A stretch of DNA of 64,000 nucleotides, from assembly GCA_963716985.1 (NCBI GenBank), contig OY970323.1:1504001-1568000 (forward strand), read 5' to 3'. Below the pieces are notes generated by a model. That model was not told the DNA's origin. It saw only the letters and a program-made list of their open reading frames with translations, and searched no databases. Of this stretch, positions 4,438-23,464 are shown piece by piece; position 1 is the stretch's first letter; each line of letters begins with the position of its first letter. Position numbers and translations under genes: made by a program. The DNA comes from an uncultured bacterium. Lineage in GTDB: Bacteria; Chlamydiota; Chlamydiia; Chlamydiales; SM23-39.

Positions 4438-6192
4438 GCAAGTGCTCATAAAACTGAGGTAAAAAACTTTAAGTTTCTTTGAGCCGCGAGGGAGCTCGCG
4501 ACACGATTACTTGCGACAACCTGGGAATTTTACACAACCCGTTGATTCTGTCTTCAAGATATCCGAAAAAAGTGATTCCAAGCTTACAGCAAGTCTTTTT
4601 TAGGCTTACAAAAGTATCTCGACATTTTTGACCTTCTTCACTACGAGTCCCTCCGGATACTTTCCGCTTAACCACCATCTCTCGAGCATCGGTTTCGGTT
4701 CCATTATTGTGAAGGGGGGTGTCTGGTTTCTCTAATACCCTGAGCAATTCGTCCTTTTTTTCATAAGTTTTTGCCAGCTGTTTGTTTAGGGTGGGACTGA
4801 TGGTTTTCTTTTTTGAGAATAAATTGTCAAAATTCTGCTCGAGAATCAATTTTAGGCTTTCAGAGGGCGCGAGTTTGTATTCCTGCAGCCCCTTGTATAA
4901 ATCCCAAATTTCTCCCCGGACTTGCTCGATTGCTTTGCGTGTTGCTTCGTCAAAGGGAATGAGTTTTCGATAATGCCTCTCCTCATGGATCCAACATAAA
5001 GATCGAACGAAGACATTGAATTGCCCTGCATCATCTCCATGCACTCCAAGATCTCTTGGTATGCCATTTTCTATCAGGCTCGCGAATAGGGCGGCCTCGG
5101 TTACAAGTTTTATGTCGCTTTCTGACTTGATGTTTATTGCGAGTAAAAATTTCTCCCATTCTATTTGATTCATGGATCGATATCGGGCCTGCAAAAGGAG
5201 GTATCCTCCTAACCAACTCGAGGGTTTTAGGGTCTCAATGTAGTCTGCAGTGTCTTCATTGATAAGATATCGAGGAGCCGTCCCATGCAATATCTTGAGA
5301 AAATTTATGCGACTTTTGCTTTCTGTCGACACAATGTAGGTAAAATATTCGTTCCCTATGATCGTCGAGTAGCCATTATGCCCTCGGTGGCGAGCGCCGG
5401 TGTCGTCTACTTTTACTTGTCCTGTAGCTGCTATCCCCGCGGACAATAGCTCGTTCTTTTCCTGATGGAAGGCTTCCTTTCCTTGGATCAAAATATTGCT
5501 CAACTGTCCTTCGGAGATCAATACGCCAATTTCTTTCAACTGTGCAAACAGCAGAGGTTCTGTAATACGACAGCCATAATATTGGTGCAAAACGTAGCTG
5601 ATCAATTGAGGGCCATAATGTCCCTGGATATTTTGCGGCAATTTACCTGTTAAGTAAGTGCCATCAGGCAATTGCCATCGCTCGAGTTCGTATATGGTAT
5701 TGTAAGGCTGAAGAATGATGTCCTGTACGGTAAATTTCTGACATCCTTTGAAGGTAGCTCCTTCGGGAACTGATTCGGGCTTAATGCGACTTCTGGTATG
5801 TATCTCAAGTTTTTTGGTTTTTTTACGTCGAGGATGCATCCCCCTGGAGAGTTTATTTTTGTCGTTTTGCTTATCTTTGCTTTGTTGCCCCTCTAAAGTG
5901 CTGGGAGGAATCTTTGGACGGGGCTTTTGTCCCTTGAGAATTGCAATCTCATCTTTTAGTCGTTGGATTTCTTCGTGCTGAAATGAAATGGTGTTCAAAG
6001 CAATGTCGAGGCGATCTCTTAGGCGTCGATCTTCTTCAGCGAGCTGGGTATTTTGCTCTAAAATTCGTTGAATGAGGTCATTGTTATTCTGCATAAGCAA
6101 GTAAATTTACGATGACGAACGATTAAAGAAAAGATTTATATTTTTTTAGGATCTAAGAATGAGGTATTTACCTCAACTTTTTGAGCACTTGC
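4438..6192 (-). mobile_element. IS66-family element (single-ORF, ISBst12-like), complete
   Basis: TIRs GCAAGTGCTCA..(4438) / ..TGAGCACTTGC(6192); 8-bp target duplication AAAAAGCA at 4430-4437 and 6193-6200. Confidence 0.9.
4469..6100 (-). CDS. IS66-family transposase
   Basis: N-terminal coiled coil, VDDTGARH, LCWIHEERH, PLHNNGTETDAR, RKVSGGTRS motifs. Confidence 0.9.
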   Translation of the reverse strand: MLMQNNNDLIQRILEQNTQLAEEDRRLRDRLDIALNTISFQHEEIQRLKDEIAILKGQKPRPKIPPSTLEGQQSKDKQNDKNKLSRGMHPRRKKTKKLEIHTRSRIKPESVPEGATFKGCQKFTVQDIILQPYNTIYELERWQLPDGTYLTGKLPQNIQGHYGPQLISYVLHQYYGCRITEPLLFAQLKEIGVLISEGQLSNILIQGKEAFHQEKNELLSAGIAATGQVKVDDTGARHRGHNGYSTIIGNEYFTYIVSTESKSRINFLKILHGTAPRYLINEDTADYIETLKPSSWLGGYLLLQARYRSMNQIEWEKFLLAINIKSESDIKLVTEAALFASLIENGIPRDLGVHGDDAGQFNVFVRSLCWIHEERHYRKLIPFDEATRKAIEQVRGEIWDLYKGLQEYKLAPSESLKLILEQNFDNLFSKKKTISPTLNKQLAKTYEKKDELLRVLEKPDTPLHNNGTETDAREMVVKRKVSGGTRSEEGQKCRDTFVSLKKTCCKLGITFFGYLEDRINGLCKIPRLSQVIVSRAPSRLKET

Positions 6193-21141: not shown

Positions 21142-21439
21142 AGAACCTCAGTTTTTTGTTTTTTCAACTTCAGATTAAAAATAGTAAATAAAAAATGATG
21201 GCTTCAAGGAGAGTACTGGCTCAAGCGCCAGTAATAATGAGAAAAACAAAGAGAACGGAACCTATGCCCACAAGAATGGGGCAGGTGTTCAACGAGATGG
21301 TGTGTAAATTCTAATGATTCAGAATGGATCATCAACATATCTTACGACTTTTTGCAACTGCTTCTAAATAAGTTCACATGTGGGTCTCCTGTCCATGGTT
21401 ACACAAACTTTCTTTAAACTTGCTCATCACTCTATACTG

Positions 21440-21560
21440 CGCACTCTTCTAAAACGGGATGATCGTCGGTCTTACGACAAACGATCTCACCAATGATGTT
21501 ATCGGTGATGATGCAGACCAAGCTCATAATCGGGCGTTTAGCACCAATGCATTTCCGGCC
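21440..21560. ncRNA. Candidate IS110 bridge/seek RNA (two guide loops); strand not established, + strand suspected
   Basis: Parallel motifs CTTCTAAAacggg...ctCACCAATG and gCTCATAAtcggg...gCACCAATG whose variable parts match the donor end and the target. Confidence 0.7.
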
Positions 21561-21696
21561 TTTAAAGTCGTTGAAAGTTTGCTTGATTACCTGTAAGTTT
21601 TAGTTGATTTTTGTTTTTAGCAAGCTACTAGTGCTCTGTCATAGTTAAAATTTAGGATTATAAGTTTGGCAACGGTCGGCATAAACTCAAGTCAAT

Positions 21697-23124
21697 TTAT
21701 CCTAAAATTAAAGGGTGACAGAGCACTAGCCCATATCCTAGTTCTCGTGCTCGTTTCTGCAATGACAATAGCTGTCTTTCTTTATATGCCTGTTCGTATG
21801 CAGCTTGTCCAACTTCTGTAAAATTTTTGCGCTCTTTCAGCATCGTATACAGAATTTTTGCAAGTTTATGTGCTGCCGCTGTGATCGCTTTTGGAGCACC
21901 GAGTCTTGCTCGCATCCTACGAAAATAGGCGCCAAGGGCTGTTTTGGAGCGGTAAAGGGCATTGGCTGCTAAGCGTAATGCTTGTGCTGCCCTGTTGGCA
22001 GTTGGCTTGGTCTTGCCGCTCAAAATCTTGCCACCGGAAATCTTGTTGCCGGGACAAAGCCCAAGCCAAGAAGCGAAATGTTTCGCACTCGGCCATTTGG
22101 ACATATCCATGCCAATCTCTCCTAGAATTTTTATAATCCCATTCACGTCCAGTCCGGGAATGTCAGTCAAGTTGACGTGAAGAATTCTTTCGAGAGAACC
22201 TTCTGCTTCAAAGTGATATGGACTGAGGTTGTATTTCGTCTTTTTCTGTGTTCCTCGCCCATTTTTACTTGAATGTTCTGCAGGAGTCGATCTTGGAGCC
22301 GGCATATTTTTTTTCGGTTGCGCTTCTTCCCATTTCTTCAGTACTTGCTCTATAGCCTCTTCGCACTCCAAAGCCTGTTGATGGAAAAAATCATAAGCTG
22401 CAAGAGCGTGTTTCAGCGCCAGTAGATGTTCCTCTCGATAGTTGCCATCGAGAGCTTTTGCAATTTCTTTTTCATCTTTTTTGCATCGAGGATCTCGATA
22501 TTTTGCTAAGACTAAGGGAGATCGTTCTCCAGAGACAATCGCTCGTATAATATTCATGCCTGTAGCGCCCGTAATGTCACTCACTACGTGATTGAGTTGG
22601 AGATTCATTTGCACGAGGGCTTTGTGCATCAATTGCACCTGCTGAGAGGCCAATTCAAATAAACGGCTTCTCTGCCTCACATATCCGCGAAGTATGACTC
22701 CTTCATCATCGGGACGAAATGATCCTCTAAGTAATCCGTAGGCGTGTAATTGTTGGATCCATTGGCAATCTTTTACATCGGTTTTTCTACCCGGGACTGT
22801 TTTGAGGTAATATGCATTTACCAATATGACATCTATCCCTGCCTGAGCCAAGATATCGTAAACCGGAATCCAGTATACTCCGGTAGATTCCATTGCTACG
22901 CTCCGGATCTCATTCTGTTGGATCCAGGACAGCATGTTCTTGAGATCCTCTGTGAAGGTTAAATACTCGCGTATTTCTTGGTGCCCATCGGGAAAACCGA
23001 TACAAATGAATACAGAGCTGGCTCCAATGTCTATACCGGCAACACACGGATTTATGGGAGCCAATCTAAAATTAGATGCAGATGCAGGTTGAGTTTTTGG
23101 ATATTTTTTGGTATTTTTTTTCAT
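21697..23124 (-). CDS. IS110-family DEDD recombinase/transposase
   Basis: GIDIG, MESTGVYW, RKTDVKD (DEDD); FASWLGLCP..ISGG (catalytic Ser region); AAAHKLA. Confidence 0.95.
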   Translation of the reverse strand: MKKNTKKYPKTQPASASNFRLAPINPCVAGIDIGASSVFICIGFPDGHQEIREYLTFTEDLKNMLSWIQQNEIRSVAMESTGVYWIPVYDILAQAGIDVILVNAYYLKTVPGRKTDVKDCQWIQQLHAYGLLRGSFRPDDEGVILRGYVRQRSRLFELASQQVQLMHKALVQMNLQLNHVVSDITGATGMNIIRAIVSGERSPLVLAKYRDPRCKKDEKEIAKALDGNYREEHLLALKHALAAYDFFHQQALECEEAIEQVLKKWEEAQPKKNMPAPRSTPAEHSSKNGRGTQKKTKYNLSPYHFEAEGSLERILHVNLTDIPGLDVNGIIKILGEIGMDMSKWPSAKHFASWLGLCPGNKISGGKILSGKTKPTANRAAQALRLAANALYRSKTALGAYFRRMRARLGAPKAITAAAHKLAKILYTMLKERKNFTEVGQAAYEQAYKERQLLSLQKRARELGYGLVLCHPLILG

Positions 23125-23464
23125 GACAAACCTCTTTAGTTGATGTTGTTTCAAATAATCGCGTCGATCATTCTACAGAGGTTTGTCATTTTTTGGGGGT
23201 TTTACCGTATTCTTGTGACCTCACTTATTTTTAGATGTTGCCAGAGACACAGTCCCGGTGAGGAGCTCATAAAGTTGAGGTAAATCCCAATTTTTGGGCT
23301 TTAAGCAACGGTTTATCCATAGAGGACGGAAGCGTTCAAAAAAAGTTTACGCCTCAACTTTATGAGCAGTTGCACTTTTTAGGTATTTTACTCTAAAGTG
23401 AAAAAAAAACAAGGCAGAAAAAAAGAACTCGAACATTTTGATCACTCAATTTGAACGGAGTCAA

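Follow-up and report, generated by a model that had tools for sequence, protein, structure and literature searches.

IS4321 and IS5075, of the IS1111 group, are said to insert into the 38-bp terminal inverted repeats (TIRs) of Tn21-family transposons, an observation attributed to Partridge and Hall in 2003; ISPpu9 and ISPpu10, of the IS110 family, reportedly target repetitive extragenic palindromic (REP) sequences; and the bridge RNA of IS621 was reportedly described by Durrant et al. in 2024, with structures 8wt6 and others. Here, we examined an IS110-family insertion sequence (IS) in a 64,000-nucleotide stretch of the genome of an uncultured chlamydia (the window; positions 1504001-1568000 of the single 2,067,739-bp contig OY970323.1, denoted G000:C1 in coordinates below), for which a sequence-only reading had proposed that it lies precisely in the TIR of an IS66-derived miniature inverted-repeat transposable element (MITE) and is RNA-programmed against such TIRs. 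Like IS4321 and IS5075, it is an IS with a DEDD transposase at one fixed position and orientation in another transposon's TIR; unlike them, its host repeat is the 22-bp TIR of an IS66-type MITE or IS, in an environmental chlamydia. With the REP-targeting members ISPpu9, ISPpu10, and ISPa11 it shares the use of a repeated, non-essential genomic sequence as landing site, with the difference that the repeat here is the end of a mobile element.

The IS4321 target logo (section 13) and the REP-targeting IS110 member ISPa11 (sections 9 and 13) are mentioned in PMC11187229. In section 12 of the same source, ISEc21, of the IS110 type, is described as inserting into a conserved part of the transposase genes of IS3-family elements, and its relative ISMch6 as naturally redirected. 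The present element resembles this pair in that an IS110-family RNA is aimed at another IS and is naturally retargeted by few guide bases; unlike ISEc21, it hits a TIR instead of coding sequence, has its RNA downstream of the gene, and occurs as retargeted alleles that coexist in one genome. As described in PMC11208160, IS621 RNA has a target and a donor internal loop; each reads both DNA strands on either side of a CT core of 2 nt, and it is the left target that the longer guide faces. Our element has the same two internal loops and 2-nt CT core, and IS621 is its closest solved structure by sequence; unlike in IS621, the left-flank strand lies on the 3' side of the loop and the RNA lies 3' of the gene. 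A downstream RNA with the left-flank strand 3' is also found in the IS1111-type seekRNAs of PMC11187229, if its convention maps onto ours as we take it to, and section 6 of that source records downstream-RNA exceptions among IS110-type elements. Unlike the IS1111 type (330-350 aa, section 6), the transposase has about 469 aa, and no subterminal inverted repeat of the element reaches significance. That IS110 and IS1111 elements are RNA-guided, have a 2-nt core, and can target sites within other mobile elements is thus already known from the relevant sections of PMC11187229 and from PMC11208160, and the locus is a clean natural case of an established mechanism that introduces no new kind of system. 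Our literature search returned no title or abstract describing an IS110 element in IS66 TIRs, or one with MITEs in Chlamydiae. On the evidence below, it is very probable that the locus represents RNA-guided, site-specific IS110 insertion with a bridge RNA (seekRNA) 3' of the gene, in an element that is active or recently active.

Insertion into an IS66-type TIR and copies of the element

The insertion site comprises the following features.

21347..21353, no strand: left target duplication of the MITE (MITE1), ACTTTTT, recurring at 23374-23380
21354..21362, + strand: outer 9 nt of the MITE1 left TIR (GCAACTG plus the core CT), severed by the IS110 element and contiguous with CATAAAGTTGAGG in empty MITE1 copies
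21363..23267, - strand: IS110-family element, 1905 bp, delimited by four genome copies with the same termini and by empty-site comparison
23268..23373, + strand: MITE1 remainder, made up of the left TIR's inner 13 nt, the interior, and an intact right TIR (23352-23373) that is an unoccupied target
23374..23380, no strand: right MITE1 target duplication, ACTTTTT

Window positions 21354-21362 (GCAACTGCT) and 23268-23280 (CATAAAGTTGAGG) join into the reverse complement of 23352-23373 (22/22), and excising 21363-23267 restores a 115-bp MITE1 with perfect 22-bp inverted ends. Whole-genome BLAST mapped two intact empty copies that are 100% identical over 115 bp (G000:C1:1911929-1912043 and 1943670-1943784), which upholds the proposed placement within the TIR. 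A single CT is present in the empty site, versus one at each IS110 junction (21361-21362 and 23266-23267) in the occupied site, as had also been proposed; we counted one CT core with the element, the choice between the two copies being arbitrary. The ACTTTTT on both sides of MITE1 likewise stands, with the correction that the duplication here is 7 bp (8 bp with one mismatch), compared with a clean 8 bp, TGGTATTG, at the second occupied MITE1.

MITE1 is non-coding and multicopy, with four copies in the genome, two empty and two interrupted. Its TIR agrees with the ends of the full IS66-like element at window 4438-6192 at 19/22 positions on the left and 20/22 on the right (manual count), six IS66-like right ends match MITE1 bases 1-30 at 90% (27/30), and the target duplication has the same length as that of the full element (8 bp at copy b, 7 bp at copy a; see below). 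By these sequence criteria, MITE1 classes as a derivative of an IS66-like element.

The four genome copies of the IS110 element share the same termini; the window copy is copy a. Copy b (414416-416320) is 100% identical to it over 1905 bp, including a nested second MITE (MITE2), and has the same TIR position and relative orientation, but occupies the opposite TIR of a different MITE1 copy. MITE1 is asymmetric inside (TAAATCCC beside one TIR, CGTAAAC beside the other), so occupation of opposite TIRs marks copies a and b as independent insertions. The insertion site of copy c (790620-792426, 1807 bp), whose 469-aa gene is intact, is TTTGTTTTG-CT-TATAAGGAT; copy d (852675-857354), at CGATTGC-CT-CTGAAATTT, is disrupted by stop codons and a 2.87-kb IS. 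The flanks of copies c and d are unique, non-TIR DNA, and the alleles a/b, c, and d coexist in one genome at 98-99% element identity. Furthermore, a 59-bp IS110 right-end remnant (G000:C1:1579719-1579777) abuts GGTATTCGC past the AG core and marks an old insertion, the fifth, that lies in no TIR.

The gene and its neighbouring features are as follows.

21697..23124, - strand: transposase gene, 475 aa in the window copy; the native form, in copy c, has 469 aa
23123..23189, - strand: 5'-untranslated region (UTR) hairpin, whose 3' arm holds the Shine-Dalgarno sequence (AAAGAGG) and ATG; the sequence is kept in L045, a relative described below
21627..21729, no strand: nested MITE2, 98 bp, TIR CTAGTGCTCTGTCA, at CTAG in the last transposase codons, with a 5-nt placement ambiguity

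The transposase scores above the cut-off for both the N-terminal, DEDD/RuvC-like domain PF01548 (DEDD_Tnp_IS110; 3.6e-18, 66.3 bits) and the C-terminal domain PF02371 (1.2e-11, 45.2 bits), and reaches 248.7 bits against NF033542, 'IS110 family RNA-guided transposase' (cut-off 140). Residues D32, E79, D116, D119, P358, S363, and G364 are invariant among 33 homologues, and the motif given in section 6 of PMC11187229 assigns predicted catalytic roles to D32/E79/D116/D119 and to P....SG. Among solved structures, the transposases of IS621 and ISCro4 come closest. The ends, TCTAAAT... and ...GAGGAG, do not form an inverted repeat, and only the core CT is shared at the junctions, in all four copies and the remnant, as is typical of IS110. 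Together with the DEDD domains, the motif residues, and a structured RNA with a target and a donor loop (three of the four guide strands), this places the element in the IS110 family.

With respect to the IS1111 subgroup, the 7-17-bp subterminal inverted repeats expected there were not found: the best match between left end (LE) and right end (RE) spans 8 bp (AAATAAGT) that lie unequally far from the two termini, and 24/500 shuffles reach its score. Nor does the 469-aa native transposase fall in the subgroup's length range (about 330-350 aa). The element does show the IS1111-type arrangement of a long non-coding region downstream of the transposase gene (tnp), in which the guide complementary to the top strand lies 5' of the guide complementary to the bottom strand. 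The 5' UTR measures 143 nt and the 3' non-coding region 254 nt without MITE2. The 5'-UTR hairpin (window 23123-23189), predicted from the sequence to pair the Shine-Dalgarno sequence and ATG with an upstream complement, is probably a translation damper.

MITE2 is present in copies a and b and absent from c and d. It turns the protein end ...LVAC into ...LVLCHPLILG, replacing the last 2 residues and adding 6, and metagenome contigs from two runs omit exactly 98 bases, 21626 to 21725, which corresponds to the form without MITE2. Since identical copies stand at two sites, the a/b form moved after MITE2 was acquired. Elsewhere in the genome, MITE2 (98-104 bp) has >30 further copies (e.g., G000:C1:605496-605605 and 64676-64783), and it also occurs near the end of a 2.75-2.87-kb IS. 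The 2865-bp IS in copy d (G000:C1:853672-856536) has the ends GTAACCGTCTAATCTA...TAGATTAGACGCTTAC, an 8-bp overlap at the break, and at least 7 genome copies. The MITE1 copy that carries copy b is itself inserted in the 5' part of another IS110-family transposase gene (G000:C1:413586-414320; 36% identical, one TGA stop), a three-deep nesting of an IS110 element in a MITE in another IS110-like element.

A bridge RNA whose guide strands follow the insertion sites

The region 3' of the transposase gene holds a bridge RNA of ~180 nt, with the following parts.

21403..21582, - strand: bridge RNA gene, two stem-loops with internal loops and a long-range closing stem (21573-21582 with 21403-21412), from the fold and RNAalifold
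21547..21555, - strand: target loop 5' strand, GAAAUGCAU; AAAUG pairs with the right flank (reverse complement AACTG, 4/5) and a conserved C pairs with the core G
21521..21530, - strand: target loop 3' strand, AUUAUGAGCU; UUAUG plus AG has, in transposase sense, the sequence of the left flank and core (CT-CATAA on the + strand)
21442..21454, - strand: donor loop 3' strand, UUUUAGAAGAGUG; UUUAGA plus AG equals the element's own right end plus core

RNAalifold on 41 homologues returned this pair of stem-loops, in which 12 of 20 base pairs show compensatory changes and it is the guide strands that vary. On its 3' side, the target loop reads UUAUGAGC, which matches the TIR site G-CT-CATAA on the + strand; in transposase sense the core reads AG, i.e., CT on the + strand. 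The donor loop 3' strand, UUUAGAAG, equals the element's right end (TTTAGA) and core, so that the RE terminus TTTAGA+AG is repeated there. An idea that GGUGAG serves as a donor-loop guide was dropped because the 41-sequence alignment shows UGG(U)GA to be a conserved inner stem.

The proposal of RNA-guided programming is supported by a comparison of the genome copies, in which guide changes track the flanks of c and d.

copies a and b: loop 3' strand UUAUGAG(C), left flank TTATG-AG
copy c: loop 3' strand UUAUAAG(C), left flank TTATA-AG
copy d: loop 3' strand UUCAGAG(C), left flank TTCAG-AG

The guides of c and d differ from that of a/b by 1 and 2 nt, exactly where the flanks differ, and the single difference between copies a and c across the 254-nt 3' non-coding region is the guide base that faces the differing flank position. 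The target loop 5' strand reads AAAUG-C in a and c and AAACC-C in d; in a/b it matches the right flank and core base at 5/6 positions (manual count).

The transposase has thousands of metagenomic homologues. It was not found in any of the 36 same-family genomes searched, and was found in 1/24 genomes of other families in the order, at 51% identity; these genomes therefore yielded no orthologous empty sites for copies c and d. We collected 79 loci from genomes and 79 from metagenomes; the conserved RNA motif occurred in 53/162 sources examined (56 matches, 52 distinct rows). For the left-flank test, the left end was placed from each element's own motif in 28 rows, and the 24 distinct pairs were permuted 10,000 times. 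At least 5/6 positions of the target 3' strand agreed with the left flank in 20/28 rows, and the 24 distinct pairs averaged 4.67/6 versus 2.70 when permuted, a value reached by 0/10,000 permutations. Similarly, the right flank agreed with the target 5' strand at a mean of 2.77/5 over 31 distinct pairs versus 1.35 permuted (0/10,000). A second 5'-strand register, with the last base against the first flank base, fits L046 and L053 and is weaker overall (2.06/6 versus 1.59 permuted; 42/10,000 reach it); we rejected it. On the donor side, the donor-loop 7-mer stood at the expected right end in 41/52 distinct rows (manual count) and covaries with it, as TTTAGG-AG in L041, TTTAAA-AG in L042, TTTGAA-AG in L059, and others.

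The RNA motif lies upstream of tnp in 30/37 motif-bearing genome loci (manual count), so its location alone cannot place the clade in IS1111. It is upstream in relatives ~50% identical to our transposase (L046, L051-L054, L065-L075, L108, L111, and others) and downstream in a subclade 57-100% identical. The termini are homologous in both arrangements (RE ...GTTATTTAGA-AG; LE C[AT]CC.CA), and as the same RNA stands on either side of the gene with homologous ends, the RNA module has moved within the clade. In some relatives (L129 at ~300, L131, and L051:465-2170), the target guide CUAGAAG has almost the sequence of their right end, TTAGA-AG; L129 immediately follows the right end of a further copy and L051 contains a head-to-tail pair, and such relatives appear to target their own end and form tandems.

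Target range and alternative explanations

Two relatives occupy IS66-type TIRs at the position used here. In L045, from a metagenome-assembled genome of the Parachlamydiales (transposase 73% identical), the same 3' guide is found at GTAAGTG-CT|CATAAAGT; its host is a ~170-bp element with the TIR repeated at the other end, in which no clear target duplication was seen. In L123, from a metagenome contig (transposase 87% identical), the flanks CTCAACTTTATG-AG and CAGTTGC represent a MITE1-type TIR, and both guide strands are perfect (AACUG-C and UUAUGAG).

The full-length relative of MITE1 in the window offers a further target.

4438..6192, - strand: full IS66-like element with a single 543-aa open reading frame (ORF) and an 8-bp duplication, AAAAAGCA, on both sides; left TIR GCAAGTG-CT-CATAAAACTGAGG, unoccupied

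Its ORF matches PF03050 (DDE_Tnp_IS66; 4.2e-15, 56.4 bits versus a cut-off of 23.1), and the domain, the TIRs, and the 8-bp target duplication are those of the IS66 family; the NF033517 score, 96.2 bits, is under the 180-bit cut-off, and we therefore regard the element as a divergent member. That its left end looks like an empty target was confirmed: the guides fit it as well as they fit the MITE1 TIR, and it is unoccupied in 7/7 copies found. The IS66-like right TIR has one mismatch to the guides (CAAAA).

There are 44 empty TGCTCATAA sites in the genome, among them 6 MITE1 TIRs; 7 IS66-like left TIRs (GCAAGTG-CT-CATAAAAC), which both guide strands fit as in MITE1; 14 sites (manual count) in another repeat (TGGATCTGTGCTCATAAGAGG); and 2 perfect AAATG-CT-CATAA sites, at genome positions 1049164 and 1286721. 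The repeat at the 14 sites (e.g., G000:C1:503712, 506824, and 1746620) ends in TGGATCTG-TGCTCATAAGAGGTAGAGG, contains TG-CT-CATAA, is never occupied by IS110, and is probably the end of another IS family. Occupancy is 2/8 for MITE1 TIRs versus 0/9 for other sites of equal or better fit, a difference that is not significant (manual Fisher test, p about 0.2).

In its strict form, the claim that the element is programmed against IS66 TIRs held only in part: the guide match, copies a/b, L045, and L123 favour it, and copies c and d, in unique, non-TIR DNA, count against it. RNA guidance itself is left standing by these two copies, since their guides have changed to match; what they show is that the family is not restricted to IS66 ends. 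From the guide-flank match and the TIR-borne relatives, programming against IS66-type TIRs is therefore supported, as an ancestral and recurrent target of the lineage and not as an exclusive one. Since L128 has the same guide beside a non-TIR flank, UUAUGAG is probably the older allele, with c and d as retargeted derivatives, a direction of guide change that we infer.

Several observations weigh against RNA-guided programming toward these TIRs. The guides do not explain why only MITE1 was hit, the 7 IS66-like left TIRs and the 2 perfect sites all being empty, and L128 shares the 3' guide yet lies outside a TIR. The 5' strand agrees only weakly with the right flank in copies c and d (3/6 each with the core base, by manual count; 2/5 without it), and a by-eye search of the donor-loop 5' strand against the left end (CTCCTCACC) gave no consistent complementary register. 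Among relatives, 8/28 left-flank rows match at only 1-4 of 6 positions: L059 at 2/6 and L107 at 1/6, both probably wrong end calls, and L051 (second row), L090, L114, L117, L121, and L122 at 4/6, with a real 1-nt guide/flank mismatch in L121 and L122. A scan of window 21300-23420 with Rfam 15, at E up to 1, returned only two chance miRNA-like hairpins, one of them the 5'-UTR hairpin, and no bridge-RNA family. Finally, contigs of 4 soil/peat metagenome runs contained no circle junction and no new insertion site, though such contigs drop rare forms; copies b, c, and d appear in them with their known flanks, and one contig that skips the 1905 bases is indistinguishable from the two empty MITE1 copies.

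These points bear on three other explanations. The transposase protein itself might read the IS66-type TIR, by sequence or shape, with no guide in the 3' region. The presence of two of the four copies here and of two relatives in such TIRs would suit this, as would the emptiness of sites that fit the guides equally or better. Copies c and d, however, occupy unique DNA of unrelated sequence, and where their flanks differ their loop bases differ accordingly, the same rule holds in relatives with quite different targets, and related IS110 and IS1111 elements have been shown experimentally to need the RNA (in the relevant sections of PMC11187229 and in PMC11208160); we regard recognition by the protein as very unlikely. 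Just as little credit can be given to a common origin of the two occupied MITE1 loci, by duplication, gene conversion, or movement of a composite by an IS66 transposase. The 100% identity of a and b, nested MITE2 included, invites such a view, but copy a sits in the TIR by TAAATCCC and copy b in the TIR by CGTAAAC, neither of which can be derived by moving or copying the composite, and the flanks and duplications differ (ACTTTTT versus TGGTATTG).

It is equally improbable that the guide matches arose after insertion, or that the copies are inactive remnants, in which case no programming would be at work today. The damage to copy d by stop codons and the 2.87-kb IS, the MITE2 in the last codons of a and b, and the lack of a circle junction in the metagenome contigs all point that way; against this, the a/b form moved after gaining MITE2, the 469-aa gene of copy c is intact, and a chance matching guide change in two separate copies is improbable (for copy c, ~0.13%, taking 1 base in 254 and 1 of 3 alternatives; manual calculation). 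RNA-guided insertion thus remains by far the preferred explanation.

Proposed mechanism and significance

In the mechanism that we propose, a DEDD recombinase would be aimed by the bridge RNA (seekRNA) presumably transcribed from the region 3' of the transposase gene. The target 3' strand (UUAUG-AG) would pair with the opposite DNA strand of the left flank and core, because its sequence is that of the left flank and core, and the 5' strand (AAAUG-C) is complementary to the right flank and one core base; together, they specify about AAnTG-CT-CATAA on the + strand, i.e., bases 3-14 of the 22-bp TIR. On the donor side, the 3' strand (UUUAGA-AG) matches the element's own right end and core. By analogy with IS621 and ISEc11/ISEc21, the element may be excised as a circle RE-AG-LE (+ strand GGTGAGGAG-CT-TCTAAAT) and recombine at the target CT core, with nothing cut out and only the core duplicated, in a presumed order of strand exchange.

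As for consequences, splitting the TIR after base 9 plausibly disables the MITE end, and insertion into a MITE plausibly leaves host genes intact, so far as the sequence indicates; the insertion may thus bring a benefit (a safe harbour, as the sequence-only reading had it) or damage the MITE by depriving it of a working TIR.

A wider history can be offered only tentatively, at somewhat less than even probability: that this chlamydial IS110 lineage is a long-term parasite of IS66-type ends (in at least 3 genomes or samples, with transposases 73-100% identical), that it has been retargeted stepwise through three alleles (1-2 nt), and that its RNA module was relocated from upstream to downstream of the gene while the element ends stayed homologous, with a loop-strand order opposite to that of IS621.

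In summary, the locus leaves the known mechanism unchanged, and IS66-type TIRs and MITEs join the short list of mobile-element ends used by IS110-family elements. It documents a conserved ~180-nt bridge RNA outside Rfam 15, in a clade of long (about 465 aa) transposases where the RNA may be upstream or downstream of the gene. Because targets both empty and occupied coexist in one genome with three near-identical elements, whose 1-2-nt guide changes track their sites, the rules of specificity and mismatch could be read from nature.

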